Assembly (NCBI GenBank): GCA_035571835.1
Contig: DATNBU010000041.1
Coordinates: 11,955-75,954, forward strand
DNA length: 64,000 bases
Direction of reading: 5' to 3'
From: Candidatus Limnocylindrales bacterium
GTDB taxonomy: Bacteria > Desulfobacterota > Binatia > UBA1149 > CAITLU01
The notes below the pieces were generated by a model, which was not told the origin of the DNA, searched no databases, and saw nothing but the letters and a program-made list of their open reading frames with translations. Below are positions 5,946 to 53,264 of the stretch, one piece after another. A program made the position numbers and the translations under genes. The stretch's first letter is position 1; every line of letters starts with the position of its first letter.

Positions 5946-6740
5946 ATGATTCTCGATCGATTTCGGCTCGACGGAAAAGTCGCCATCGTAACCGGCGCAA
6001 GTGCAGGAATTGGCCGCGGCAGCGCGCTCGGGCTCGCCGAGGCCGGTGCGCACGTCGTGATCGCGGCCCGCACCGCGTCCACTCTCGACGATGCCGCCGC
6101 GGAGATCGCCGGCACCGGCGCACGCGTGCTGCCGATCGTCACCGACGTCAACGACGCCGCCCAGCTCGGACGGTTGGCCGACGCCGCGATCGCCGAGTTC
6201 GGCCGCATCGACATCCTCGTCAACAACGCCGGGGGTACGGCGCCGGGACCCGCGCTGTTCCTCGATCCGGACGACCTCGCCGCGTCGTTCCACTTCAACG
6301 TCGGTACGGCGCTGCAAATGTCCAAACTCTGTGCGCCGCACATGATCGCTGCAGGCGGCGGGTCGATCGTGAACATCTCGAGCGCGATGTCGTACATGGT
6401 CGAGCCGGGCTTCGTCGCCTACGGCGCGGCCAAGGCAGCGCTGTCGCACATGACGCGTCTTCTTGCGTGCGAATGGGCGCCTCACATCCGCGTGAACGCG
6501 CTCGCGGTGGGCGCGACCGAGACCGAGGCGCTCGGTATGTTTCTGAACGCGTCGCCGACCGTGCGCGATGACATGATCGCGATGACGCCGATGGGCCGCC
6601 TCGGCACGCCCGAAGACATTGCGCTCGGCGTGCTCTATCTCGCGTCTCCCGCCTCGAGCTGGATCACCGGCAAGGTCTACGAGATCGACGGCGGCACGGT
6701 CGCATCGAACTGGCCGATGAAGATGCCGAGCGGGCTCTGA
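5946..6740 (+). CDS. SDR family oxidoreductase (short-chain dehydrogenase/reductase)
   Basis: KVAIVTGASAGIG Rossmann motif with the YGAAK active-site motif. RBS AAGGAG lies 7 nt upstream of ATG 5946. Divergent from the flavoprotein gene. Confidence 0.8.
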   Translation: MILDRFRLDGKVAIVTGASAGIGRGSALGLAEAGAHVVIAARTASTLDDAAAEIAGTGARVLPIVTDVNDAAQLGRLADAAIAEFGRIDILVNNAGGTAPGPALFLDPDDLAASFHFNVGTALQMSKLCAPHMIAAGGGSIVNISSAMSYMVEPGFVAYGAAKAALSHMTRLLACEWAPHIRVNALAVGATETEALGMFLNASPTVRDDMIAMTPMGRLGTPEDIALGVLYLASPASSWITGKVYEIDGGTVASNWPMKMPSGL

Positions 6741-6843
6741 AGCGGAATCACGCGGCCGTGCGATCGTGAGCAGCATCGGGAACGCGGGAAGAAGACGGCG
6801 CGGGACGGCGTTGTCCGCCCCGTCCGCGTTGTCCACGTTGCCC

Positions 6844-8850
6844 ATGCGCGCTGCATGCATCGCAGCCGCGATGAACCTCATCCTGATCACGGGCCTGCCG
6901 GGGAAAGCTGCAGCCGCAGCCGCTTCCAGAAGCGCAACGGCTTCCACGAGCGCAACTTCTGCAAAAGATCCGCAGCATACCGAGGCGCAGCGCCTTCCGG
7001 GTTTCCAGGGGCGTACGCTCGACGGCAAGACGCTGTCGACCGCATCGTTCTCCGGCAAGCGGCTGCTGCTGCTGTGCTTCAATCCCGGCATCGCGCAGTC
7101 GGCGGCGTATGCGCAGGCGCTTGCGAACCTTGCGCCCGAGCGAAGCCGCAACAACTTCGAGATCGCCGGCGTTGCGATGGGGCTCGATCCCGCGGACGCG
7201 CGCGCATTCGCCGCGAAGCTCAAGCTCGACTTCCCGATCTTCGACGACTCGGACGCGACGATCGCGGGCGGCCTCGGGCTGCAGGCTCCGGTGGTCCTGC
7301 TTGGCGTCGACGCCGAAGGTCGCGTCGGCATGGCGATGCTCGGCTTCGAGCACGAGCAGGAGATCCCGGCGGTTGCCGTTGAAGATCACGTCCGCGAGTT
7401 CCTGCGGCTTCCTCGCGCTGACACCGTAACCGGCGGCGCGCTCGATCCGCGGCCGAAAGCGCCGCCGTTCGATGCCGAGCGTCTGAGCGGAGGCGACCGC
7501 TTCCGGCTATCCGATCTGTCGGGCAAGCCGGTGGCGCTGGTGTTTTTCATGCCGACCTGTCCGCACTGCCGCGATGCGCTGCGTTTCTTCAAGGGCGAGC
7601 TTGCGCGCATGCCCGAGAAGAATCGTCCGGTGCTGGTCGGAGTATCGATGGACAGCCGCGCGTACTCGGTCGAATCCACGCTTGCGGAAGAGAAGCTCGA
7701 CTTCTTTCCGGTGCTGCTCGATGCGGACCGCAGGATTGCCTCGGCCTACGGTTCGTTCGCGGGAGTTCCCGACATCGTCCTGATCGATGCGACGGGGCGT
7801 ATCGCGTTCCGGAGCAAAGGATGGAGCGAGGAGCCCGACGCAAGACTGATGCGGATGCGCCTTGCGCGCCTGGCCGGCGCCGAAGTGCCGATGCTGCTCG
7901 ACTCGCACGGATTCAGCGGCAACGACACGTGCGCCATCTGCCATACGATGGAAGCGGCCGCGTGGAAGTACACCGAACACTCGGTCGCATTCGACACGCT
8001 CGTGACGCGCGGAGCAGATCACGATCCGAAATGCGTCGGCTGCCACGTCGTCGGCTTCGGCCAGGCCGGCGGGTACTCCGAAGCCGCGCGCCAGCAGAAC
8101 CTCGAGAACGTCGGATGCGAGACGTGCCACGGCAAGGGCGGCGGACATCTGGACGCGCGATCGAAAACCGCCGGCGGGGCGGCGGCGGTCGACTATCGGT
8201 CCGCCTGCAAAGGCTGTCACGACCCGCAGCATTCGCTCGGCTTCGAGTACGAGAAGTTCCTGCCGAAAGTCTCGCACGCGGCCATCGCCGCGCTCAGCGA
8301 CGCGGAGCGAGAGAAGCTGATCGCCGGACGAAACCGTCCGCGTGACCTGCTGCCGACGGGGTCGGCCGTCGTCGGCTCATCGGCGTGCAAGACCTGCCAC
8401 GAGCATGAATACTTCCTGTGGTCGACGACGGCCCACGCGCGCTCGGTCGAAAGCCTCCGAAAGGAGCGCAAGGAATCGAAGGCCGAGTGTCTTCGCTGTC
8501 ACGTGACGGCCTACGGGCGCCCCGGCGGTTTTCCCGACGGCGAGCCGGTGCGTGCGCACGAGGATCTCGCACGCGTCGGTTGCGAGTCCTGCCACGGCGC
8601 GGGGGCCGAGCACGTGAAGAGCGGCGGCAAGCAGCTTGCCGGCATCGTAACGCTCGGCGACAAGTGCGACTCGTGCGTGATCCTGCAGATCTGCGGCGGG
8701 TGTCACGACGACGCGAACGATCCCGACTTCCGCTTCAACGTGACCCGCAAGATCGATCTCCAGCACCACGGGCGGGCGCCTGCGGTGCCGGAACGATCCG
8801 TTGATACGACGCGCGATACGAGCAGCGCCGCGACCAGCGCCGGCAACTAG
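6844..8850 (+). CDS. fusion protein: two thioredoxin/TlpA-like domains (second with CPHC) plus octaheme c-type cytochrome (8 CxxCH)
   Basis: The translation shows MPTCPHCRDALRFF...VPDIVLIDATGRIAF, a redoxin fold. Eight heme motifs follow: CAICH, CVGCH, CETCH, CKGCH, CKTCH, CLRCH, CESCH, CGGCH. Signal-like start MRAACIAAAMNLILITGLPG at 6844; an alternative start is 6766. Confidence 0.75.
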   Translation: MRAACIAAAMNLILITGLPGKAAAAAASRSATASTSATSAKDPQHTEAQRLPGFQGRTLDGKTLSTASFSGKRLLLLCFNPGIAQSAAYAQALANLAPERSRNNFEIAGVAMGLDPADARAFAAKLKLDFPIFDDSDATIAGGLGLQAPVVLLGVDAEGRVGMAMLGFEHEQEIPAVAVEDHVREFLRLPRADTVTGGALDPRPKAPPFDAERLSGGDRFRLSDLSGKPVALVFFMPTCPHCRDALRFFKGELARMPEKNRPVLVGVSMDSRAYSVESTLAEEKLDFFPVLLDADRRIASAYGSFAGVPDIVLIDATGRIAFRSKGWSEEPDARLMRMRLARLAGAEVPMLLDSHGFSGNDTCAICHTMEAAAWKYTEHSVAFDTLVTRGADHDPKCVGCHVVGFGQAGGYSEAARQQNLENVGCETCHGKGGGHLDARSKTAGGAAAVDYRSACKGCHDPQHSLGFEYEKFLPKVSHAAIAALSDAEREKLIAGRNRPRDLLPTGSAVVGSSACKTCHEHEYFLWSTTAHARSVESLRKERKESKAECLRCHVTAYGRPGGFPDGEPVRAHEDLARVGCESCHGAGAEHVKSGGKQLAGIVTLGDKCDSCVILQICGGCHDDANDPDFRFNVTRKIDLQHHGRAPAVPERSVDTTRDTSSAATSAGN

Positions 8851-9815: not shown

Positions 9816-10012
9816 TTCCGCTCTCCCTTGCTTCCTGTTCGCCGTCGCATCTGCATCAGACATCGCCTGCGGGAGCCCGATCCCGGGCCGCCGACCTTGC
9901 GTATGCACGGTCCATTCCACGTTGCCGACCGGCTGCTCTCGGACGACATGCTTCTTGCAGGAAAGGAGTTGGCAGATACGGCCCTTCGAAGGCCGTGAAA
10001 GGAGGGCCTGTC

Positions 10013-12487
10013 ATGAAAGCTGTCGCAGAGCGGAGTCCGGGAGCGGTTTTCTCAGCAGTTTTTGTCTTTCTGCTCGCATGGATTGCGGTGCCGCAGGCTT
10101 TTGCGGCGAAGGATGACTGTTCCCAGCCTGTCAGCGGCGGCGACGGCCCCGTGACGAGCGACTGCCTTCATATCCTGTCGACCGCCGTCGGTTCCCAGAT
10201 CTGCGAGACTTCCTGCGTGTGCGATGTCAACGGCAGTAATTCGATCACGTCGATTGACGCATTGATGTGCCTGCGGGCCGCCGTCGACCTCGAGGTCGAC
10301 ATGAATTGTCCATGCGGTGACACGACGACCACGACCATCACCACGACGACGACCACGACCATCGAAGTAACGACGACCACGACCACCACGACGACCACCA
10401 CGCTGCCGGTGGCCGGCGTGATGAACGAGGCGTGCCCGGTCTGCCACGGCGATGGGCGGGTCATCGACGTCGCGTCGTATCACCCCGGCCTGCAGACGAT
10501 TCCGGATATCAACGCCAGCATCGACAGTGTCGCGATCGTCGTGGACGACGTGGCCCACACCGCCAGGCTGACCGTCAACTTCACCGTGACCGATCCCGAT
10601 GGCGATCCGATCCCGGACCTCGGCGCGCCTTCGCCGACGCAGGCCACGCGTTTCGCGTACCTGCGTTTCGCGCTGAGCGAGCTCGAGCCGGCCGAAGACC
10701 TGAGCGGTGATCCGGACAGCTGGGTCAGCTACACGACCGGCGACCGGACGCCCGCCAACCTGACCGACCACGGCGACGGCACCTACACGTACCTGCTCGC
10801 AACCAATCTCTACACCCTCTACATCCCGTCGCTGCGGCACCGGCTGCTGATGACTGTGTCGGGCGCAATCGTAGCGCAGTCGAAGAACGTGACGTACGAC
10901 TTCGTGCCCGAGCAGCTGCCGGGTCCGTTCGTGTTCGACACCAGCCGCGACATCGTGACGACGACCGCGTGCAACAGCTGCCACGGCCGCCTCGGCAGCA
11001 CTCTTGGCGATGCGAGCTTCCACGGCGGCAGCCGCTACACGACCGAGGCCTGCGCGACGTGCCACACGACGTCGCTGGTCGGCGGCAGCGCGGAGTTCGC
11101 GCCGATGGTGCACAAGATCCACGCGGCCCAGAACATCGAAGGGCTCGCGGATTTCTCCGAGGTCACGTACCCGCAGGACGTGCGCAACTGTGCCACGTGC
11201 CACGCCGGCACCGACGGCTCCAACTGGTACACGCGGCCGTCGCAGACGGCATGCGGCTCGTGCCACGCCGATGTCGATTTCGTAACCGGCGAGAATCACG
11301 ACGGCGGTCCGCAGACCAATGCGGCGTGCGTCGACTGTCACTCCGAGGACGCCATCAAGGAAGTGCACGTCACCGACATTTCTACGCCGCATAACCCCGA
11401 CGTTCCGGAAGGCGCGGTGAGCTTCGAGTACGTGCTCGAAGAAGTGACCGTGAACGACAGCAGGCAGGCGGTCGTACGCTTCCACATCAACGCCGACGGC
11501 GAGCCTGTCGATCTCAGCACCATCCCGCCTGCCGGATTCAGCGGCGGTCCGGGCTTCCTCGTCGCCTATGCGCTGCCGCAGGACGGCGTCGAAGTGCCGG
11601 TCGATTACAACAACCTCGGCCGCAGCGCAGGACAGCCGGCGACCGTCACGCTCGCAAGCCTGTCCGGCAAGCTGACCGGTACTCCCGAGAGCTACACCGC
11701 GGTGCTCGACGCCGCTCCGTTCCCGTCCGGCGCGACGATGCGCGCGGTCGCGCTGCAGGGCTACTTCACGCAGCTGATGGGCAATCCCGCCAGCACGACG
11801 GACGATCTCGCGCGCCACACGCCGTCGGTCGTCCAGCCGGTCACCGGCGATCCGGTGCGACGTCAGGTGGTCGAAGTGGCCAAGTGCCTCAACTGCCACG
11901 AGAGCCTCGAGCTGCACGGCGGCAATCGCGTCAACAACGTCCAGGTGTGCGTCACGTGCCACGACCCGAACCTGAGCAGCAGCGGTCGCACCGTGAACCC
12001 GGCCGACGTGACGCAGGAACAGAAGGATGCGCTCGCAGCGGCCGGCCACGACCCGAACGATCCGCTCAGCTGGCCGGAGACATCGATGCAGCTGAAGAAC
12101 CTCGTGCACGGGCTGCACTCGTCCGGAATGCGCAACTTCGATTACGACTTCGTCCGCAATCGAAACGGCGCGTCGTACTTCAACTGGAGCGAAGTGACGT
12201 TCCCGGGCATCCTCAGCAACTGCGAAACCTGTCATTTGCCGGGGACGTACGGCGTCGACCTGCCGGACGGAGTACTGGTGAGCACGAACGTGACCACGAG
12301 CGGCCCGAATGCGACGAGGGCGAGCATCCTCGCGGCTCGTGACAGCGTGCCGAACGATACCGACGAGATCCTGAGCCCGACGGCCGGTCCGTGTTCGATG
12401 TGCCATGACAGCGTGCCGGCAGCGGCCCACATGGAACAGAACGGCGGCGTGATCGGCAAGACGCGCCTCGCTGCTCTGGGCAACTGA
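10013..12487 (+). CDS. secreted decaheme c-type cytochrome with N-terminal dockerin-like module and poly-Thr linker
   Basis: RBS AAGGAGG lies 6 nt upstream of ATG 10013. The protein starts with a signal peptide. A dockerin-like loop DVNGSNSITSIDALMCLRAAV follows, then the linker TTTTITTTTTTTIEVTTTTTTTTTTT. Ten CxxCH motifs are present: CPVCH, CNSCH, CATCH twice, CGSCH, CVDCH, CLNCH, CVTCH, CETCH, CSMCH. Confidence 0.8.
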   Translation: MKAVAERSPGAVFSAVFVFLLAWIAVPQAFAAKDDCSQPVSGGDGPVTSDCLHILSTAVGSQICETSCVCDVNGSNSITSIDALMCLRAAVDLEVDMNCPCGDTTTTTITTTTTTTIEVTTTTTTTTTTTLPVAGVMNEACPVCHGDGRVIDVASYHPGLQTIPDINASIDSVAIVVDDVAHTARLTVNFTVTDPDGDPIPDLGAPSPTQATRFAYLRFALSELEPAEDLSGDPDSWVSYTTGDRTPANLTDHGDGTYTYLLATNLYTLYIPSLRHRLLMTVSGAIVAQSKNVTYDFVPEQLPGPFVFDTSRDIVTTTACNSCHGRLGSTLGDASFHGGSRYTTEACATCHTTSLVGGSAEFAPMVHKIHAAQNIEGLADFSEVTYPQDVRNCATCHAGTDGSNWYTRPSQTACGSCHADVDFVTGENHDGGPQTNAACVDCHSEDAIKEVHVTDISTPHNPDVPEGAVSFEYVLEEVTVNDSRQAVVRFHINADGEPVDLSTIPPAGFSGGPGFLVAYALPQDGVEVPVDYNNLGRSAGQPATVTLASLSGKLTGTPESYTAVLDAAPFPSGATMRAVALQGYFTQLMGNPASTTDDLARHTPSVVQPVTGDPVRRQVVEVAKCLNCHESLELHGGNRVNNVQVCVTCHDPNLSSSGRTVNPADVTQEQKDALAAAGHDPNDPLSWPETSMQLKNLVHGLHSSGMRNFDYDFVRNRNGASYFNWSEVTFPGILSNCETCHLPGTYGVDLPDGVLVSTNVTTSGPNATRASILAARDSVPNDTDEILSPTAGPCSMCHDSVPAAAHMEQNGGVIGKTRLAALGN

Positions 12488-12895: not shown

Positions 12896-14920
12896 ATGCG
12901 CTCGAGACTGACGCTCTGCGTGCTATTTGCCGCCACGCTCTGGTATCCGCTGCAGGCTGCGGCTACCTGCGGAGACGGCATACTCGAACCGCTCAACGGT
13001 GAGCAGTGCGACGTACCCGGCGGCACCTTCTGCTGCATCGGCTGCCAGTTTCGAGGGTCGGAGACGCTGTGTCGCGCTGCGACCGGCGCCTGCGACGTCG
13101 AAGAATACTGCGCAGGCAACAGCACGGCGTGCCCGGCCAACAGCGTCAAGCCGAGCAGCACGATCTGTCGCGAGTCTCCGGGATCGGTCGCATCGCAGGT
13201 CGAATCCACACGCGGGCCGAGTGATCCGGACACCACCGGAACGGTCTCGGTCGGCGCGTCGTCGAGCTTCCAGTTCAAAATCGGAACCGGCGGCCTGCTG
13301 CGGACAGTTACCGCGGTGCCGTCGAGCTCGCTGCAGACGTTCGTCGACGACATCAATGCGCTGAAGAACAGCGCACCGCTTTACCAGAGGGTATCGGCCA
13401 ACCTGTTCAATGCCGGGAGCAACTGCCAGGCCGATGCGCCGGGCAACAACTCCTGTCTGTCGAACTCGGATTGCTCGGCCAACGTCGACTGCGCCACCAC
13501 GTACAAGGTCCTTCTGCTTGCCGAGACTCGCGGTGCGGACTCGATCATCGTCCAGACCGACCAGACGCAGCTCAAGTTCGCGACCCGCATCGCCGGCGCC
13601 GATGACCCCTGCAACGCGACCGAACGGTGCAACGGAACCAGCGCGAGCTGTCCCGCCGATTCGTTCCAGAATTCGTCGTTCGTCTGCCGTCCGTCCGCCG
13701 GCTCGTGCGACGTCCAGGAGAACTGTCCCGGCAACGCTTCGCTCCTCTGTCCGGCCGACACGGTCCTGGCGTCCACTACCGTGTGCCGATCGTCCGCCGG
13801 TGTCTGCGATCCGGCGGAGCTCTGCACGGGCAGTAACGGCGTTTGTCCGACCGATTCGAAGAGCACGGCGATCTGCCGGGCTTCGGGCGGCGGCTGTGAT
13901 CCGGCCGAGGTATGCGACGGCATCGCCGATGCGTGTCCTGCAACTGCCCTCAGCAGCAACGGCACCGTGTGCCGTGCACCTGCGGGAGGCTGCGACGCCG
14001 CGGAAACCTGCGACGGCGCAAGCGTCGTGTGCCCGGCCGACGTCAACCTGCCCGCGAGCACGCTTTGCCGCGCCGATGTCGGCCAGTGCGACGTTGCCGA
14101 CTTCTGCACCGGCACCACCAGGGATTGCCCGGCCGACAACTTCGAGCCCGACGGCACGACCTGCGACGACGCCGATGTCTGCACCGTCAACGACCAATGC
14201 ATCGGCGGCGTCTGCGTCGTCGATCCCCAGCATTGCGGCGACGGCGTGCTGCAGCTGACCTGCACCGAGGAGTGCGACGACGGCAACGTCGACGACGTCG
14301 ACGGATGCTCGTCGACGTGTGAGGCCGAGCCCGGGCTCGGCTGCCCGTACTTCCCGCTGTCCGGATGCCGCCAGTCGACGGTGCCGGGCAAGTCGCGAGT
14401 CGACATTCGCGACGAAGAGAAAATCAGCGGACTCAAGTTCCAGTGGCGCTGGAAAAAGGGAGCGGCGACTACCGAAGCTGACTTCGGCGATCCGCTCACC
14501 GATGCGCCGGCCGGAACCAGCTACACGCTGTGTCTGTACGATGCGGTCGGTCTGCTCGCGCAGGCCACCGCGCCTGCCGGCGGCGAATGCGGCGTCAAGG
14601 AACCGGGACCGTGCTGGACCGGGCGCCCGTCGCAGGGCTTCAACTATCTCGATTCCGACCAGTCGATCGAGCCGGACGGTGTCAAAAGCGTCGATCTCGT
14701 CGCGGGTCCGGATGGCAGGGCGTACATCGGGCTCAAGGCAGAAGGCGGACTGTTTCCGTTCCCGTCCAACGGCGGGTTCGGAGGCATCGGCGACCTGACC
14801 GGAATTGCATCGCCGCTCGTCGTGCAGCTCCAGAACACCAGCGGGCTCTGCTTCGAGGCAACCTACAGCGCGCCGTTCAAGCGGCAGCTTCCCACTCGCT
14901 TCCAGGCAAGGGCGAACTGA
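12896..14920 (+). CDS. secreted cysteine-rich repeat protein (Myxococcus-type Cys-rich / disintegrin-like repeats)
   Basis: RBS AGGGAGG precedes ATG 12896, followed by signal peptide MRSRLTLCVLFAATLWYPLQAAA. At least 10 tandem protein repeats of the form CRxxxGxCDxxExCxGxxxxCPAD. Confidence 0.7.
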   Translation: MRSRLTLCVLFAATLWYPLQAAATCGDGILEPLNGEQCDVPGGTFCCIGCQFRGSETLCRAATGACDVEEYCAGNSTACPANSVKPSSTICRESPGSVASQVESTRGPSDPDTTGTVSVGASSSFQFKIGTGGLLRTVTAVPSSSLQTFVDDINALKNSAPLYQRVSANLFNAGSNCQADAPGNNSCLSNSDCSANVDCATTYKVLLLAETRGADSIIVQTDQTQLKFATRIAGADDPCNATERCNGTSASCPADSFQNSSFVCRPSAGSCDVQENCPGNASLLCPADTVLASTTVCRSSAGVCDPAELCTGSNGVCPTDSKSTAICRASGGGCDPAEVCDGIADACPATALSSNGTVCRAPAGGCDAAETCDGASVVCPADVNLPASTLCRADVGQCDVADFCTGTTRDCPADNFEPDGTTCDDADVCTVNDQCIGGVCVVDPQHCGDGVLQLTCTEECDDGNVDDVDGCSSTCEAEPGLGCPYFPLSGCRQSTVPGKSRVDIRDEEKISGLKFQWRWKKGAATTEADFGDPLTDAPAGTSYTLCLYDAVGLLAQATAPAGGECGVKEPGPCWTGRPSQGFNYLDSDQSIEPDGVKSVDLVAGPDGRAYIGLKAEGGLFPFPSNGGFGGIGDLTGIASPLVVQLQNTSGLCFEATYSAPFKRQLPTRFQARAN

Positions 14921-15022: not shown

Positions 15023-16105
15023 ATGCGCAAGACGAGAACGATTCTTCAGCGATGGACGGTCGGCATGGTCGTCATGGCCATGGCCGTTGCCGGGCCTGCG
15101 GCCGCAGCGCCGGTCGATGATGCCAGGGCCCTGATCAACGCGATCGTCGCCACGGGCGATACCGAGCGTGCGTGGCAACTGACGCAGGTCGTGGATTCGA
15201 TGTCGGAGGCCGAGCTCGAGACGTTCGCGAATTCCGGCATCCGCGAGCTGACGGGCCTGATGAACCAGCAACGCGAAGCAATCGAAGCGGCGCGCGACAT
15301 CGGGTTCCGGCTGCCGGCCGAGCCCCCGTCGCCGGTCGTCAGAAACCACAACGACGATTTCCCGCTGTTCACCGACTACACGCCCGACTCGACTAGCTGT
15401 CCGAACTCGCCGGACCAGACCTCGATCGGAACCATCGTCGCGATCCGGTCGACGCTGGTCGGTGCGCAGGCCGCCTACAAGATCGCCAAGGCGCTCTACG
15501 ACGACACCAATCCGGTCTGTCACCAGCTCGTCGTTGCAATCGGCGTCGGCAGCAACCCGCAGACAGCCGTGTGCATCGGCCTCGGCATTGCGGAGACGGT
15601 CGTGCACGTGGCCTTCGATGTCACGGCGAAAGCTCTCGAGCTGATCGATTTCTGCGACGACGAAGTCGACTACGCGAAGATCCGCGCGACCTTCCACGAC
15701 CTCGAGTTCATTCACAATCAGCTGACCACGCACGATACGGACGAGAAGCTTCAGGTCACCACGCACGACGACGAGGAGCAGGCCTTGCTCGACGACCTGC
15801 TCGCGCGCCTCGCACGCATCGAGGGCAAGCTCGATCTTCTCATGAAGAGCCAGCTCGAGATTGCGATGGACCGCCGCGGCGGACGCTCACGTCCGAGTGT
15901 GTTCTACGAGGACCGGCTCGACGAGCTGTGCGGCTATGCGCAGGAAGCCGTCGACGATCTTCCCGACGTCTACCTGGTCGCCGACCAGTGCCAGGGGCTG
16001 ATCAACGAAGGACTTTCTCTCAAACTGACGGACCCCAAGCTGGCAGCGGACACGTGTGTCGCGGCCTTCGTACGAGCCACCGCCGGCTCGTCGACGCTGC
16101 AGTAG
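15023..16105 (+). CDS. secreted hypothetical protein, paralog A (conserved C-terminus RPSVFYEDRLDELC...DDLP...TDPK.AAD.C)
   Basis: Signal peptide MRKTRTILQRWTVGMVVMAMAVAGPAAAAP with RBS GAGGA. The paralog downstream shares the acidic HD/E-rich helical segment and the C-terminal block. Confidence 0.65.
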   Translation: MRKTRTILQRWTVGMVVMAMAVAGPAAAAPVDDARALINAIVATGDTERAWQLTQVVDSMSEAELETFANSGIRELTGLMNQQREAIEAARDIGFRLPAEPPSPVVRNHNDDFPLFTDYTPDSTSCPNSPDQTSIGTIVAIRSTLVGAQAAYKIAKALYDDTNPVCHQLVVAIGVGSNPQTAVCIGLGIAETVVHVAFDVTAKALELIDFCDDEVDYAKIRATFHDLEFIHNQLTTHDTDEKLQVTTHDDEEQALLDDLLARLARIEGKLDLLMKSQLEIAMDRRGGRSRPSVFYEDRLDELCGYAQEAVDDLPDVYLVADQCQGLINEGLSLKLTDPKLAADTCVAAFVRATAGSSTLQ

Positions 16106-16171
16106 CGTGAACGACATGATGCAGATGATGTCTCCGCGAACGATGGGTTCGAATACCGGTGATGTTCCGCA

Positions 16172-16207
16172 GAGGAATCCCAAGAGGAATCCCACGAGGA
16201 ATCCAAT
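16172..16207 (+). repeat. 3 x 12-nt tandem repeat GAGGAATCCCAA/CAC/AAT ending in the start codon of paralog B
   Basis: Read directly: gaggaatcccaa gaggaatcccac gaggaatccaATG. Each unit contains an SD-like GAGGA. Confidence 0.7.
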
Positions 16208-17300
16208 GATCCGTAAAGTCCTGCGACGAACGACAGGGATGTTTCTTCTCACGCTTGCCGTATTGGCCGTAGCGCTGCCGCAAGCGGCTGTTGCGTCCGA
16301 CCGCGACGAGACACTGGAGCTGGCCGATACCATCCGCGACCTCGGATATTCCGGCGAAGCCGCGCAGATCGAGCAGCTGGTGGCGGGAATGTCCGATTCC
16401 GAGCTCCAGCTTCTCGGGGATGCCGGCTTCTTCCAGATCTCTTCCAAGCTGAAAGCGTACCAGGTGGCGAAAGAGCGTGCGGACGCGCTCGAGTTCATCT
16501 CCGTCGAGCCCCAGGGCGCAAGCCAGCGTGCGATCCTGTCCGACTACGATCTGTCGACCTTCCCCGCGGCGGTCTATCCGCCGCAGGATTCGACCTGCGT
16601 CAACGCGGTCGGGACGGTCAGCACCGCGGCAGTCAAGGTCGGGCTCAAGGCTACCGTTTTCACGCTGAGGGAAGCGCTGACGGCCGCCGACGGTGCGCAG
16701 CGGGCGGCGATGGCCGGCTGCAACATCATCGTCATCGCGATCGGCATCGGCGGCAACGCCGCGTCGGCCTGCGTCGTCTCAGCCATCGTTCTCAGCGTGG
16801 CCGACGCTGCCCTGTCGGTCGGCGAAATCTTCATCGACAACCTGATCTTCTGCGACGAACAGGTGCATTTTGCGGAATCCGAAGCCTCCGCTGTTCGCGC
16901 GGAGTACCTGAGCCACCAGCTCGAGCTTCACGATCTCGAGCTCGGCGAGCAGATCGCCACGCACGACGTGGAAGTCCAGGCCAAGGTGCAGCAGGCGATC
17001 GCGCGCGCGGCCAGCATCGAAGGCAAGATCGATCTCGGCCTGAAGACCCAGCTCGAAGTCGCGATGGATCGCAAGACCGTCACGCGTCCGAGCATCTTCT
17101 ACGAGGATCGGCTCGATGAGCTCTGCGATCTCGCGCAGGAGGCGATCGACGATCTGCCGGCCACCTACATCCTGGCAACGAGGGCGCAGACCCTCGTCAA
17201 CGACGGAATGGCGTTCAAGATCACCGATCCGAAGCGCGCGGCCGACGAGTGCATTCGTGGATTCAGCATGGCAACCACGAAGTCGACCGAACACAACTAG
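16206..17300 (+). CDS. secreted hypothetical protein, paralog B of 15023..16105
   Basis: Signal peptide MIRKVLRRTTGMFLLTLAVLAVALPQAAVA. C-terminal block RPSIFYEDRLDELCDLAQEAIDDLPATYILA...TDPKRAADECI is shared with paralog A. The upstream part of ORF 16056 has low GC3 and is judged non-coding. Confidence 0.65.
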   Translation: MIRKVLRRTTGMFLLTLAVLAVALPQAAVASDRDETLELADTIRDLGYSGEAAQIEQLVAGMSDSELQLLGDAGFFQISSKLKAYQVAKERADALEFISVEPQGASQRAILSDYDLSTFPAAVYPPQDSTCVNAVGTVSTAAVKVGLKATVFTLREALTAADGAQRAAMAGCNIIVIAIGIGGNAASACVVSAIVLSVADAALSVGEIFIDNLIFCDEQVHFAESEASAVRAEYLSHQLELHDLELGEQIATHDVEVQAKVQQAIARAASIEGKIDLGLKTQLEVAMDRKTVTRPSIFYEDRLDELCDLAQEAIDDLPATYILATRAQTLVNDGMAFKITDPKRAADECIRGFSMATTKSTEHN

Positions 17301-17331: not shown

Positions 17332-18447
17332 GTGACGGGAGTGGATATCTCGAAGGCTGCCGTGCTGTCGCGAAGCGAAGCCGCGGCTTCGAGCGCGTCG
17401 TGGCGGAGCGCGGTTGCCGCCGGGCGCGGCTTCATCGCTTCGGGACTCTACGACAGCGTCTTCTTCCTGCTGGCACCGGTGATCGCGCTCGCGATCGTTG
17501 CCGTGGTCGCGGTGCTGCCGCCGGCGAAGGGGATTCCCGCTGTGTTCCGCGAGCCGGCCGGGCCGGCGATCTTCGTGATGCTGGTCCTTTCGCAGGCGCA
17601 CGCGGTCGCGGTGTTCTTTCGAAGCCACGGCAATCGCGCGATCTTCGTGCGTCACCGCTTCGCATTCGTGGTCGTGCCGGTCCTCCTTTTTGCCGGGCTC
17701 ATGACTTCGAACTGGGTGATGGCCGGTGCACTGGTGCTGGCTCCGTTCTGGGCCGTCTACCACCTCGGCATGCAGAGCTTCGGGCTCGGCCGCATGTACG
17801 ACGTGCGCTGGGGCAACTCGCCGGAGACGGGCCGCACGCTGGACTACTGGCTGCAGCAGCTCTTCAACCTCGCGCCGTTCCTTGCCGGTTGGAGCCTTCT
17901 GCCGCACCTGCAGTCGCTGCGGATCTTCGAACGCGTCGGCTGGCATGCGCCGGCGGCGTGGCTCGATGCGCATCGTTCGATCGAGGGTGCGCTCGCCGGC
18001 GTGTTCCTCGTGGCCGGACCGGTCTTCCTCGCGTACTACGTTTATTCGTACCGCAGGTTCATGCAGCAGGGCTACAGGCTCTGCCCGCAGAAGGTCGTGC
18101 TGCTGGCGACGACGGGCGTCGTCTCGGTGGTTTCCTGGGGATTCCTCACGTCGTGGAAGGCGGTGTTCGTGATGAACCTTTTCCACAGCGTGCAGTATTT
18201 CGCGCTGGTCTGGTGGGCCGAGCGCAAGAACCTCGGCCGCGTGAGCCGCCTGCAGCGCGTCTCGTTCGGCACGCCGGTCCTGCTCGTCGCGTTCCTCGTG
18301 ATCACGCTGTCGCTCGGAACTTTTCTCCAGGCGTACGGTCGCGACTACACGGTGATGCGCTGGACCGCGTCGCTCGCGCTCGTGATCTCGCTGATGCACT
18401 ACTGGTACGATGGATTCGTGTGGTCGGTGCGGCGCCGCGAGGTCTGA
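17332..18447 (+). CDS. polytopic integral membrane protein, hypothetical (GTG start)
   Basis: Multiple hydrophobic helices and high GC3. The overlapping alternative-frame ORF 17400.. was rejected over this interval. Confidence 0.55.
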   Translation: MTGVDISKAAVLSRSEAAASSASWRSAVAAGRGFIASGLYDSVFFLLAPVIALAIVAVVAVLPPAKGIPAVFREPAGPAIFVMLVLSQAHAVAVFFRSHGNRAIFVRHRFAFVVVPVLLFAGLMTSNWVMAGALVLAPFWAVYHLGMQSFGLGRMYDVRWGNSPETGRTLDYWLQQLFNLAPFLAGWSLLPHLQSLRIFERVGWHAPAAWLDAHRSIEGALAGVFLVAGPVFLAYYVYSYRRFMQQGYRLCPQKVVLLATTGVVSVVSWGFLTSWKAVFVMNLFHSVQYFALVWWAERKNLGRVSRLQRVSFGTPVLLVAFLVITLSLGTFLQAYGRDYTVMRWTASLALVISLMHYWYDGFVWSVRRREV

Positions 18448-18458
18448 CGCCGGGTCCC

Positions 18459-20117
18459 GTGGTCGGTGAGGCGTCGCGACGTCTGACGCCCAGTCCCGTG
18501 AAGCGGCGGTCCGCGGTCCTCGACCGTTTGTTCGCAATCGATAGCCGATCGCTCGCGGCATTCCGCATCGGGATCGGCACGCTCGTGCTTGCCGACCTGT
18601 GGACGCGCTTCTCCGCAATCGAGCAGCACTACACGGACTCCGGCGTCCTGTCGCGGGAAGCCTATGCGCGCCTGTTGCAGGTCAGCGGATGGCAGTGGTC
18701 GATTCACTTCTGGACCGGAAGCGTCGCCGGGCAGTCCGCACTGTTTCTTCTGACGGCTGCGGCGGCGTGCGCGCTGATCGCGGGGTACCGGACGCGCGCG
18801 GCGTCGGTCGTGACGTGGGCGCTCGTCGTTTCGCTCCAGGTGCGCAACCCGATGGTGCTCTACGGCGCCGACCAGCTGCTGCGTCTGATGCTGTTCTGGT
18901 CGATATTCGTCCCGCTCGGTGCGGCGTGGTCGCTCGATCGTCGTCGAGCTGCCGTCGCGAACAGCGGGACGACCCGCACCCGGGAAATCGGTGTCTGTCC
19001 CCGATTTTTGTCGGCGGCGACGGCAGCGCTGCTGCTGCAGCCGTGCGTGATGTACGTGTTTGCGGGGCTGCTCAAGTCGAATCCGTCGTGGCACTCGGGC
19101 GATGCGCTCGCGTATGCGCTGTCCGCCGAGACGTACGTGACGCCGCTCGGCCGCGTGCTCGCCGGTTTTCCGGGGCTCGTATCGATGCTCGGCTCCGCCG
19201 TGCCGTGGATCGAGATCTTCGCGCCGGTGCTGCTTCTGATGCCGTGGAAGACGACGGCGGCGCGCAGGATTGCGCTTCCGCTGCTCGTCGCGTTCCACGC
19301 AGCGATGGGCTCGGCGCTGCGCACGGGACTGTTCCAGCCGGTCGTCGTCGTCGCGCTCGTTCCGTTCGTCCCGGCAGACGTCTGGGACCGCGTTGGGCTC
19401 GGCTGCGGCGATGCCGGCGACGCGGCAGGGAAACAGGCTGCGTCGCGGACGTCACGGTGGGACTCGGCGCTCGTGCAGGCCGTCGTCGCTCTGCTGTTCG
19501 TCTACGGCATCGCGTGGAACGTCGTCGGCCTTGGCGTCGAAGAGTATGCGGCGCAGCAGAACCTCGGCTGGATGCGCGAGTGGTGGAGCCAGGGCCGCAC
19601 CGGCATCCCGTTGTCGTTCCGCGACTACGCGGTCGAACGAAGGATGGGCGGATTCGGCTGGATCGGTCGCGTCGCCGCGCTCTATCAGCGATGGGACATG
19701 TTCGAGCGCGTCGGACCGGAGATTCGCGGCTGGCCGGAAATCTCCGGCACGCTGACCGACGGGCAGAAGGTGAGCGTGCTCGATGATGGCGCTGCGCGCG
19801 GTGATCCGGGATCGCAATTCGCACCGCAGGAACCGCTCGCGTTCTATCCGGGCACGCGCTGGCTGGTCTACTTCACGTATCTGCGCACGTCGGGCACGCA
19901 GGCCGCAAGAGAGCTGCTGCCGGCAGTCGTCACGCGTGACTGGGAGCGGCGGCATCCGGGAAACAAGCTCGAGTCGCTGCAGGTGATGTTCGTTCAGCCA
20001 TCCGCCGCTGCCGGCGACTCGACCGCAGTTGCGGGTTCGACGCCGGCGAAGATCGAGGTCTGGTACGACGGGCCGGCGAACGGGCGCGGGCCGTCGAAAG
20101 CACGCAAGCCCGTCTGA
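18459..20117 (+). CDS. HTTM domain protein (vitamin K-dependent gamma-carboxylase-like transmembrane domain) with C-terminal extension
   Basis: N-terminal motif LDRLFAIDSRSLAAFRIGIGTLVLADLW is typical of HTTM proteins. The start is uncertain: GTG 18459 or GTG 18498. This is the downstream part of long ORF 17400..20117. Confidence 0.6.
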   Translation: MVGEASRRLTPSPVKRRSAVLDRLFAIDSRSLAAFRIGIGTLVLADLWTRFSAIEQHYTDSGVLSREAYARLLQVSGWQWSIHFWTGSVAGQSALFLLTAAAACALIAGYRTRAASVVTWALVVSLQVRNPMVLYGADQLLRLMLFWSIFVPLGAAWSLDRRRAAVANSGTTRTREIGVCPRFLSAATAALLLQPCVMYVFAGLLKSNPSWHSGDALAYALSAETYVTPLGRVLAGFPGLVSMLGSAVPWIEIFAPVLLLMPWKTTAARRIALPLLVAFHAAMGSALRTGLFQPVVVVALVPFVPADVWDRVGLGCGDAGDAAGKQAASRTSRWDSALVQAVVALLFVYGIAWNVVGLGVEEYAAQQNLGWMREWWSQGRTGIPLSFRDYAVERRMGGFGWIGRVAALYQRWDMFERVGPEIRGWPEISGTLTDGQKVSVLDDGAARGDPGSQFAPQEPLAFYPGTRWLVYFTYLRTSGTQAARELLPAVVTRDWERRHPGNKLESLQVMFVQPSAAAGDSTAVAGSTPAKIEVWYDGPANGRGPSKARKPV

Positions 20118-20136
20118 GCAAGGTGTCGCGCTGCGA

Positions 20137-20187
20137 GCGAACGCAGCGTGCACGGGTAAACAGCGAACGCAGCGTGCACGGGTAAAC
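20137..20187. repeat. tandem duplication of a ~26-nt unit (GCGAACGCAGCGTGCACGGGTAAACA) in a convergent intergenic region
   Basis: Two near-identical adjacent copies read in the sequence, between stops at 20117 (+) and 20219 (-). Confidence 0.6.
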
Positions 20188-52264: not shown

Positions 52265-53023
52265 CTATGGAATGGTGGTCGTTGTAATGCCCGGCATTGT
52301 CGTCGTGGTAATGCTCGTCGTGGTTATCCTCGGCTCCGTGGTCGTGGTTATTCCCGGCACGGTGGTGGTGGTGATCCCCGGCATCGTGGTTGTGGTTATC
52401 CCCGGCATCGTGGTTGTGGTTATCCCTGGCACCGTCGTTGTGGTGATCGACGACGGCTCGCAGAGGTCTGCGCAGACGCCGGAAGCACCGCAACACGTGT
52501 TGATGATGCAGACCTGACCTGAGCCGCAGTCCTGGCTGTCGGTGCATGGAAACAAGCAGAGGCTGTTGAAGACGCACTCCCCACAGGTCGTCTCCGTGGT
52601 CTGGTTCCGATAACACCCGAGCTCCGGATTGCACAGCGGCGATGAGCCGCAGGTCGCGTCCGAGCAAGGAATCGTCGTCGTGGTGATGCTGATGGTGGTG
52701 GTCGTCGTCGGCGGCGGCAACGTTGTCGTCACGGTCACGCACTGATTCTCGATGCAAAGGTCCCCTGGCCCGCATACTCCGCAATCGATCGGTGTACCGC
52801 AGCCGTTGCTCGCGCTGCCGCACTGCAGTCCTTGCTGCGCACAGCTTTGCGCGCCGCAGCAGGTTCCGAGTCTGTCGGACGGGTTCCGTTTCAAGCACAG
52901 GTTGCTGCTGCAGACTCTGTCGACGGCGCAGGTCGCACCACCTGGTCTCCCCGCAGGGCCGGCAACACCCACGGTTGCACACAAAATGATCATCAGCAGC
53001 GAAGCCGTTGTTGCTGTCTTCAT
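52265..53023 (-). CDS. secreted Cys-rich / Thr-rich repeat protein (TTTT-x-PGI tandem repeats)
   Basis: Signal peptide MKTATTASLLMIILCATVGVAG. Cys-rich module CCGAQSCAQQGLQCGSASNGCGTPIDCGVCGPGDLCIENQC followed by Thr-rich repeats. Confidence 0.7.
   Translation of the reverse strand: MKTATTASLLMIILCATVGVAGPAGRPGGATCAVDRVCSSNLCLKRNPSDRLGTCCGAQSCAQQGLQCGSASNGCGTPIDCGVCGPGDLCIENQCVTVTTTLPPPTTTTTISITTTTIPCSDATCGSSPLCNPELGCYRNQTTETTCGECVFNSLCLFPCTDSQDCGSGQVCIINTCCGASGVCADLCEPSSITTTTVPGITTTTMPGITTTTMPGITTTTVPGITTTTEPRITTTSITTTTMPGITTTTIP
52270..52460. repeat. tandem ~27-nt DNA repeats (CCCCGGCATCGTGGTTGTGGTTATC-like) encoding the TTTTxPGI peptide repeats on the minus strand
   Basis: At least six near-identical adjacent units read in the sequence. 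Confidence 0.8.
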
Positions 53024-53190
53024 GGAACCCCCTGCGACGGAAGATTTGAGTAAGAGCGAAATTCTTCACCCTTGTGACTGAGGCTCACTCGCACAGTTTC
53101 ACGGCTCAGGAAGTCCGACAAGATCTTTGGGAAATATGATTCTGACGTCTCGTGCGAATCGCTGCACACGCTTGGTGCGCGAGATCATCC

Positions 53191-53264
53191 GACACGAGAG
53201 CTGCGACACGAGAGCTGCCGACACGAGAGCTGCCGACACGAGAGTTGCCGACACGAGAGCTGCG
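53191..53264. repeat. 5 x ~15-nt tandem repeat GACACGAGAGCTGCC in a divergent intergenic region
   Basis: gacacgagagctgc / gacacgagagctgcc x2 / gacacgagagttgcc / gacacgagagctgcg, read directly between the starts at 53023 (-) and 53582 (+). Confidence 0.8.

Follow-up and report, generated by a model that had tools for sequence, protein, structure and literature searches.

A duplicated family of secreted helical proteins encoded beside a gamma-carboxylase-like HTTM protein and a membrane protein of no described family

The locus

We consider two tandem genes, A and B, in a 64,000-nt stretch of DNA (contig DATNBU010000041.1 of a Candidatus Limnocylindrales bacterium). The whole stretch is called the window here. 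L numbers denote fetched related loci and P numbers denote homologous proteins. A and B lie in a close-packed row of five genes on the + strand. The row encodes a Cys-rich protein, A, B, a polytopic membrane protein that we call Memb371 and a protein with an HTTM domain (Table 1). The repeats of the Cys-rich protein are of the disintegrin-like or myxococcal Cys-rich acidic kind, and its C-terminal domain is conserved. No promoter or terminator signals delimiting an operon were supported.

The original prediction was made from the letters of the window without database searches. It placed A and B directly upstream of the HTTM gene and proposed a tie between them. The tie has held up, but the gene for Memb371 sits in between, and both this protein and the Cys-rich protein upstream had been overlooked. 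The description was right in substance. What it got wrong was this adjacency, the Glu-richness of A and B and the perfection of a 12-nt repeat ahead of B.

Table 1. Features of the gene row in the window, and the single-copy ribosome-binding sites of B at related loci
Feature	Coordinates	Strand	Notes
Secreted Cys-rich protein	12896..14920	+	674 aa, 53 Cys; Pfam Disintegrin E 1.5e-29; NCBIfam TIGR02232
Gene A, secreted all-helical acidic protein (predicted)	15023..16105	+	360 aa; leader about residues 1-28
A, Cys-bracketed hairpin	15518..15655	+	CHQLVVAIGVGSNPQTAVC...FC, residues 166-211; superfamily core signature
A, conserved C-terminal block	15890..16057	+	RPSVFYEDRLDELC...TDPKLAADTC, residues 290-345
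12-nt array	16171..16206	+	unit AGAGGAATCCCA
Gene B, secreted all-helical acidic protein (predicted)	16206..17300	+	364 aa
B, Cys-bracketed hairpin	16719..16853	+	CNIIVIAIGIGGNAASAC...IFC, residues 172-216; strongly hydrophobic
B, two HD dipeptides	16929..16967	+	11 residues apart
B, conserved C-terminal block	17085..17252	+	RPSIFYEDRLDELC...TDPKRAADEC, residues 294-349
Memb371, polytopic membrane protein	17332..18447	+	371 aa; no described family
HTTM-domain protein	18498..20117	+	539 aa from GTG 18498; Pfam PF05090
B ribosome-binding site, L001			CAGAGGAAGCCGATG
B ribosome-binding site, L004			AAGGAATCCGGAGGGAGCCCCGTTGATG
B ribosome-binding site, L048-50			CAAAGGAACCCGATG
B ribosome-binding site, L051			ACGAGGAAACCCATG

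Proteins A and B

A and B are tandem paralogues of about 360 aa, as predicted. They are 36% identical over their full length (BLASTP, E 2e-62). Each N-terminus runs from a basic n-region through a hydrophobic h-region to an Ala-x-Ala site. These read as Sec-type leaders and agree with the signal peptides that had been called from the sequence. The leader of B is MIRKVLRRTTGMFLLTLAVLAVALPQAAVA, followed by SDRD. Gene A has GAGGA 8 nt ahead of its ATG. Both proteins are acidic (pI 4.5 for A and 4.6 for B), but the further claim that they are Glu-rich does not survive a Glu content of 5.8% in A and 6.9% in B. The middle was also described as His-rich, and this fails too, with His at just 1.9% in A and 1.4% in B. 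The HD...HD motif that was described there is real, and its dipeptides have a fixed offset (Table 1).

No domain had been recognised in either protein, and we also found none. Searches of A and B against Pfam, NCBIfam, PADLOC, PHROGs and PDB sequences were all empty. Since there are no PADLOC or PHROGs matches, a defence-system or phage origin is ruled out.

The family alignment has six invariant Cys (131, 172, 189, 216, 307 and 349 in B numbering). An invariant AIGxGxN turn sits between C172 and C189. The hairpin is much less hydrophobic in A than in B, where the leader and the hairpin region together give 28 windows of 19 aa above a Kyte-Doolittle value of 1.6. In an AlphaFold2 model B is all-helical and forms a long hairpin, the tip of which is a hydrophobic Gly-rich turn (modelled at low confidence). 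Foldseek found nothing in the PDB for this model (best E 2.2), which is weak evidence given a predicted TM-score (pTM) of 0.41.

The best conserved part is the C-terminal block, which the original prediction had already picked out. Its mean majority fraction is 0.75, compared to 0.47-0.67 in other parts. Across B 294-349, 23 of the 56 residues are invariant, in the pattern RPSxFYE[ED]RLxExC..AQEA..[DE]LP..Y...TxPKxAA..C. To judge from the alignment, this is far more invariance than a small helical domain would need to fold. The string [ED]RLxExC recalls the ExxxExC of Gla domains, but this is a resemblance only and could be chance.

The family and its superfamily

With B as the query, a search of 5.8 billion proteins found a close family of 19 clusters. 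Five loci of this family turned up when one genome of each species was scanned (185,579 genomes). All of them are in metagenome-assembled genomes (MAGs) labelled Binatia, delta-proteobacteria or Myxococcales. A protein identical to B is present in NCBI, annotated at 364 aa, and its source is a 'Candidatus Limnocylindrales bacterium' MAG (locus VN634_19420). The named related loci are all from Binatia, delta-proteobacterial or Myxococcales MAGs, and the taxonomy given for the source MAG may not be trustworthy.

When 1.84 billion representatives were searched with a profile, the family fell into a superfamily of 212 clusters at E <= 1e-3, 75 of which are at E <= 1e-10. The superfamily core is SRxCDxxVVxxGxGGNxSLxC...FCDxxxDSAEIEGxYxRxxHxH. 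No Pfam family matched this core in the 121 members scanned. Downstream of it there is a variable number of 11-residue repeats, either xTHDxDIxxxL or NDNANKxxI, and of 212 HD-HD spacings, 141 are of 11 residues. The common features of the superfamily are a Cys-clamped hydrophobic hairpin and these 11-residue HD repeats. The link to HTTM is partial, and the C-termini differ from member to member.

The repeats of the distant relatives look like hendecad coiled-coil stalks with polar core residues, and they belong to no Pfam family. The two HD dipeptides of B are apparently a remnant of this stalk. P0027, P0030 and the proteins of L024 and L029 have up to nine perfect 11-residue HD (xTHDxDIxxxL) or NDNANKTxI units at fixed positions. 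Many distant relatives end in LLxTPxGxR and then a CxGDDCP...C...WNC knot.

The HTTM protein

The HTTM protein matches PF05090 across residues 30-309 with 39.8 bits, above the cut-off of 27.7. Its similarity to human GGCX, the vitamin-K-type gamma-carboxylase, is weak. A profile of nine HTTM homologues matches human GGCX structures at E 2.4e-4, and hhalign gives a probability of 92.6% over GGCX residues 58-317. Nevertheless four of the five alignable active-site residues of GGCX are kept. The invariant K209 (counted from 18450) and W214 align to GGCX K218 and W223 with both HMMER and hhalign, and N133 and F295 align to N159 and F299. In GGCX K218 is the general or catalytic base, W223 is a stacking residue, and N159 and F299 belong to the Glu/CO2 site (PMC12647623). 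The original prediction called this gene gamma-carboxylase-like. That is supported by the catalytic-base Lys, which is kept. The numbering of the human GGCX sequence used in the comparison fits four residues named in PMC12647623, and its residues 161-317 match the PDB output.

Memb371

Memb371 has 83 homologous clusters but no family in Pfam. Its AlphaFold2 model is confident (predicted local distance difference test score, pLDDT, 87.6; pTM 0.85) and matches no fold in the PDB. The invariant residues include four His (H90, H144, H285 and H356) as well as R97, Q148, E297 and D360, and Tyr is among them too. GGCX has no counterpart of Memb371. One can imagine that Memb371 is a diverged HTTM or DoxX-type protein, but this is ruled out by an hhalign probability of 0.1%. 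There is no invariant Cys in the Memb371 alignment, which sets it apart from VKOR, and there is none in the HTTM alignment either. Because neither alignment has one, a thiol oxidase role for the membrane pair is argued against, and a DsbB/VKOR-like disulfide-forming machinery for Cys-rich secreted proteins is ruled out.

Distant Memb371 homologues are found without HTTM in L043 (6264-9321, Chondromyces apiculatus) and L044 (6276-8833, a metagenome contig). They overlap an upstream gene for a membrane protein of about 245 aa, and then there are secreted proteins with (GK)n or (HKK)n tails. The comparison suggests that the Memb371 fold may generally be partnered by a secreted protein, possibly in a metal-related role.

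Conservation of the trio

Synteny was examined using tblastn and iterative hidden Markov model searches over all fetched loci, plus precomputed gene tables. A family member, Memb371 and an HTTM protein are found together at about 18 independent loci from Binatia and "delta-proteobacterial" MAGs. The order family member(s)-Memb371-HTTM holds at every close-family locus with enough contig (the window, L001-L008, L014, L022, L048-50, L051, L053 and the P0005 contig). Every such relative has the same downstream genes, which bears out the tie to HTTM that had been proposed from the window alone. That the family and HTTM genes co-occur is clear. Among the three distant linked relatives L042 has the same order, and Memb371 and a divergent HTTM gene come directly before the member in L011 and L019. 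Memb371 always adjoins the family member in trio loci.

The Cys-rich protein is upstream of the family member, as the first gene of the module, in the window, L001-L004, L006-L008, L014, L048 and L051. It is absent from L011, L019, L042 and L053, so the constant unit is the trio of A/B family, Memb371 and HTTM. The search was also run in reverse. The one Memb371 homologue near 50% identity that was looked up (P0203, 51%) lies in a trio (L053). Homologues at <= 46% identity (L043-L045, L054) have neither an HTTM gene nor a family member nearby.

The pair of A and B is found at five independent loci (the window, L001, L004, L048 and L051), and elsewhere there is a single copy. In a neighbour-joining tree the A clade is sister to the B clade, and both are next to the single-copy clade. 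This indicates that the pair comes from one old duplication that was retained.

A gene for a DCC1-like thiol-disulfide oxidoreductase (PF04134) is beside HTTM in two distant trio loci of lower GC, L011 (5426-5872, +, E 2e-25) and L019 (3613-4059, -, E 9e-23). In the copy of L019 the first Cys of the CxxC motif has been lost. The window family does not have this gene. Fusions of HTTM with DCC1 are mentioned in a preprint of 2026.

A and B as candidate substrates

We argue that A and B are very probably coupled in function to the membrane pair. Our preferred reading of this coupling is more tentative. A and B may be a lineage-specific duplicate pair that serves as dedicated extracytoplasmic clients, or substrates, of a module made of Memb371 and HTTM. 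In this scenario A and B would be exported by Sec and would fold in the periplasm with three disulfides. They would then encounter the outward-facing active site of the HTTM enzyme. There the conserved Lys equivalent to GGCX K218 would form a strong base with the help of a reduced quinone and O2. The strong base would modify a client side chain, by carboxylation or a related base-driven change and not necessarily on Glu. Memb371 would be an obligatory partner enzyme or a cofactor-handling subunit. We infer three things here: that A and B are substrate rather than subunit, the chemistry, and the role of Memb371.

Several observations favour clients. The secreted protein evolves faster than both enzymes. 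Between the window and L002 the identity is 37-40% for A/B, compared to 52% for HTTM and 61% for Memb371. Substrates and effectors usually evolve faster than enzymes. The copy number of A/B varies per enzyme pair, and duplicated precursor or substrate genes beside maturation enzymes are common. The compartment of A and B matches an outward-facing active site of the GGCX type. The GGCX active site faces the lumen of the endoplasmic reticulum, which is equivalent to the periplasm. Finally, the C-terminal block appears to be conserved far beyond folding needs. The likeness to the GGCX system extends from the polytopic HTTM enzyme, with its catalytic-base Lys and its W223, F299 and N159 equivalents, to the proteins beside it. 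A and B are exported to a topologically equivalent compartment, are acidic, are predicted to be disulfide-bonded and carry the Gla-like string mentioned above, which is a resemblance only.

There are also points that weigh against clients. All of the functional evidence is gene neighbourhood. A and B are not Glu-rich, and neither a Gla domain nor any Pfam family was found in them at E <= 0.1. Unlike GGCX substrates they have no recognisable propeptide. This speaks against canonical Glu gamma-carboxylation. The Glu-rich superfamily motif AEIEGxYER has decayed in A, in the single-copy clade and in many HTTM-linked relatives. The shared core of the superfamily has no acidic residue that is invariant across all HTTM-linked members. 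In the enzyme an invariant Pro (P134, the same in all nine homologues) takes the place of GGCX H160, which leaves the Glu/CO2 site of Asn159, His160 and Phe299 incomplete. His160 of GGCX has been tied to CO2 binding and to the deprotonation of Glu, and the H160A mutant has impaired carboxylase activity (PMC12647623). The C-terminal 240 or so residues of the HTTM protein have no Pfam hit, the hhalign match ends at GGCX 317, and this part cannot be recognised as the lumenal domain that clamps the substrate in GGCX (Tyr395 region). For B the AlphaFold2 model has only moderate confidence (pLDDT 66.8, pTM 0.41). Many distant superfamily members occur outside HTTM/Memb371 loci (L020, L024/25, L028/29, L035, L037, L040/41), so the fold can function without the module. 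The original prediction speculated that A and B are modified by the HTTM enzyme through Glu gamma-carboxylation. The linkage half of that idea stands on synteny, but the chemical half is weakened by the low Glu content, the missing Gla domain and the change of H160 to Pro.

Apart from one characterised bacterial case, we know of nothing that bacterial HTTM enzymes modify. That case is MloH of malonomycin, which acts on a natural-product intermediate (PMC12647623; bioRxiv 10.64898/2026.08.19.745780). MloH, other bacterial GGCX-like carboxylases and the DUF5819-HTTM complexes resemble this locus in that they are bacterial HTTM enzymes outside blood clotting with partners encoded next door (same sources). 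They also differ from it. The target of MloH is a polyketide-peptide intermediate, compared to a 330-aa secreted protein here. There is no DUF5819 here, and a DCC1-like gene is found with HTTM only at the distant L011 and L019.

The trio is a small, rare and strictly conserved unit, and the enzyme's constant neighbour in it is a secreted helical protein with a Cys clamp. None of the curated libraries searched contains the three families, namely A/B, Memb371 and the present HTTM subgroup together with its C-terminal domain. The locus provides a candidate substrate of a bacterial carboxylase-like enzyme that can be put to the test. Should the secreted protein turn out to be modified, there would be a bacterial post-translational modification pathway and a function for a superfamily of 212 clusters. 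If A/B is a subunit instead, a new membrane complex would be defined. One can go further, although we consider it a long shot. The A/B family could supply the first known protein substrates of a bacterial gamma-carboxylase-like enzyme, and the trio could be a self-contained periplasmic system for quinone-driven protein modification. Memb371 would replace VKOR-type recycling or add a second catalytic step. Either the invariant RPSxFYE[ED]RLxExC...AQEA block or the Cys-clamped hairpin would carry the modification.

Alternatives for A and B

It is possible, if rather unlikely, that A and B serve a membrane complex of Memb371 and HTTM as subunits or adaptors outside the cytoplasm. The enzyme would then act on the Cys-rich protein, on a lipid or quinone, or on a small molecule. 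A and B would use the hydrophobic hairpin to dock on the complex, and would form a heteromer where they are paired. Several facts are in line with this. The A/B family adjoins Memb371 in every arrangement, the Cys-rich acidic protein is co-encoded at all close loci, and the hairpin is hydrophobic enough for sitting in or on the membrane. Bacterial HTTM proteins are also predicted to be in tight complexes with small partners that complete a GGCX-like architecture (DUF5819; bioRxiv 10.64898/2026.08.19.745780). However, four trio loci are without the Cys-rich protein, and superfamily members occur without the module. One or two copies per enzyme pair is unusual for a fixed subunit, and A and B evolve faster than both membrane proteins.

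Another scenario is that A and B act alone and share an operon with the membrane pair incidentally. They would be a ClyA/Yax-like binary pore-forming toxin with a hydrophobic head, or a fibre built of hendecad repeats. The architecture is what makes this worth considering. ClyA-family toxins (YaxAB, XaxAB, AhlABC, Nhe, Hbl) are encoded by adjacent paralogous genes and are elongated helical proteins of about 350 aa with a hydrophobic tip, and A and B, at about 360 aa each, are likewise tandem paralogues and have a long helical hairpin that is hydrophobic at its tip. Superfamily members have up to nine 11-residue HD or NDNANK repeats, which are typical of extended coiled coils, and many have no link to HTTM. 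The comparison breaks down at the level of sequence and fold. No Pfam toxin family was found in A, B or the 121 superfamily members, there is no PDB sequence match, and the Foldseek search was empty (best E 2.2, with a weak model of pTM 0.41). Unlike these toxins, A and B have three invariant Cys pairs and an obligate linkage to two membrane proteins. The family is single copy at most of its close loci. The synteny with the membrane pair is complete in lineages that are otherwise wholly different. A toxin or fibre acting alone is improbable.

SdpB of Bacillus subtilis belongs to the HTTM superfamily by InterPro/TIGRFAM annotation. This brings up a scenario by analogy, in which A and B would be pro-proteins of an SDP-like membrane-active peptide. 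The hydrophobic Cys-bracketed hairpin of about 45 residues would be excised as a toxin, with HTTM and Memb371 in the roles of SdpB and SdpA. In SdpABC, and similarly in YitPOM, the gene for a polytopic membrane protein lies beside that for a signal-peptide protein, and the latter has a hydrophobic segment that contains Cys. The hydrophobic 42-aa segment of SdpC starts at a Cys and becomes the SDP toxin only with SdpA and SdpB, so the membrane protein is needed for maturation in SdpABC (PMC6818787). B 172-216 is hydrophobic and bracketed by invariant Cys, which is a resemblance and not homology, and two paralogues could yield two peptides. We find this very doubtful. Conservation in A and B is highest in the C-terminal block, outside the hydrophobic segment, and a pro-toxin would discard this block. 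The hairpin of A is far less hydrophobic than that of B. The operon genes have no SdpA, SdpB or SdpI-type match in NCBIfam, where the HTTM protein, Memb371, A and B match no family at all at E <= 0.1 except for one negligible PduM hit. A and B are much larger, gene order and partners differ, and no immunity or regulator genes are recognised nearby. Memb371 is highly conserved with many invariant polar residues, unlike an immunity protein.

The repeat ahead of gene B

Tandem Repeats Finder (TRF) places the array ahead of B at 16171-16204 with a period of 12, 2.8 copies and 95% match. The exact string GAGGAATCC is found three times, at 16172, 16184 and 16196, and the third unit of the array differs at two positions. 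The original prediction had a perfect 3x12-nt repeat whose last triplet is the start codon of B. Neither part is right. TRF finds 2.8 imperfect copies, and merely the A of the start codon, ATG 16206-16208, falls in the third unit. GAGGA does occur in each unit, as stated. The distance to ATG 16206 is right for the last copy alone. About a dozen tandem arrays in the window have a TRF score >= 50, and the score of this one is not exceptional.

The ribosome-binding context A(A/G)GGAA(T/C/G/A)CC(G/A/C)ATG is ahead of B in five other lineages, and also ahead of A. It is always in single copy (Table 1; the orthologues of B compared have 57-70% protein identity). Because the orthologues have one copy of the same site, we argue that the array is a recent lineage-specific tandem triplication of the ancestral ribosome-binding site of B. 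It would supply at most extra upstream ribosome-binding sequences and does not look like a conserved regulatory device. L046 and L047 are the sole other public assemblies of the same organism and are identical to the window over 7,095 nt, so there is no independent strain to compare. The suggestion of phase variation or translational tuning is not supported: there are fewer than three imperfect copies, one copy in the orthologues of five lineages and no polymorphism in L046 and L047. What the array contains is not a long run of identical slippage-prone units (2.8 copies, 95% match). The A-B spacer gave no signal of RNA structure (z 0.15).

In four pair loci (window 16107-16205; L001 4514-4609; L004 1619-1720; L048 upstream of 1778) nothing interrupts the frame of B between the stop codon of A and the Shine-Dalgarno-proximal ATG, and the other frames have stops. 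This stretch is rich in Met, Ser, Thr, Asn and Arg and has a partly conserved CGAACGATGG(G/A)TTCGAA element. We judge it to be non-coding. An N-terminal extension that makes the repeat coding is unlikely, as the upstream ATGs are without a Shine-Dalgarno, GC and third-position GC (GC3) are lower, and AGG and AAT codons are present.

A functional array, either a copy-number translational switch for B or a coding (Q/K/T)RNP x3 in an extension from ATG 16116, has in its favour the GAGGA of each unit, the frame that is open up to ATG 16206 and a long form of the L001 orthologue chosen by one gene caller, but it is hard to credit when there are only 2.8 imperfect copies, one copy in orthologues, two other assemblies identical over 7,095 nt, upstream ATGs without a Shine-Dalgarno, a GC of 0.52-0.60 and GC3 of 0.50-0.75 that are below those of local genes, AGG and AAT codons, a Shine-Dalgarno-preceded start 6-12 residues before the hydrophobic region in all members except L001 B and L051 B (n-region insertion), an in-frame stop four codons upstream of such a start in L004 gene A, and an identical NCBI protein annotated at 364 aa.

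Other tandem duplications and neighbouring genes

A 39-nt tandem duplication (2.1 copies, 88% match) at window 18420-18500 spans the end and stop of Memb371 and the start region of HTTM. Its second copy repeats a degenerate ...WSVRRREV-stop. In L001 the gap between Memb371 and HTTM is 5 nt, with no sign of the spacer. A perfect 26-nt tandem duplication at 20136-20187 comes after the HTTM stop and before a convergent CcdC (DUF1453) gene. Together with 16171-16204 there are three short tandem duplications at gene junctions in about 4 kb, and about 0.75 would be expected from the density in the window. The strongest tandem arrays of the window are at 52320-52448 (24 nt x 5.4, score 174) and 53189-53263 (15 nt x 5.1, score 136).

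The multihaem cytochromes adjacent to the row are ruled out as essential parts of the module, as they are not conserved at other loci. A decahaem cytochrome of the OmcA/MtrC family (TIGR03507, E 9e-104) is immediately upstream of the module at 9995-12487, a position where it is not conserved elsewhere. It has a weak dockerin-like N-terminal segment and a long poly-Thr linker from an ACGACC-type tandem array (repeats 10321-10402). Further upstream, a single predicted reading frame at 6721-8850 joins an AhpC/TSA-redoxin domain with multihaem domains of the cytochrome c554 and NapC-NirT types. Such a fusion of a peroxiredoxin-like fold with a multihaem cytochrome is unusual.

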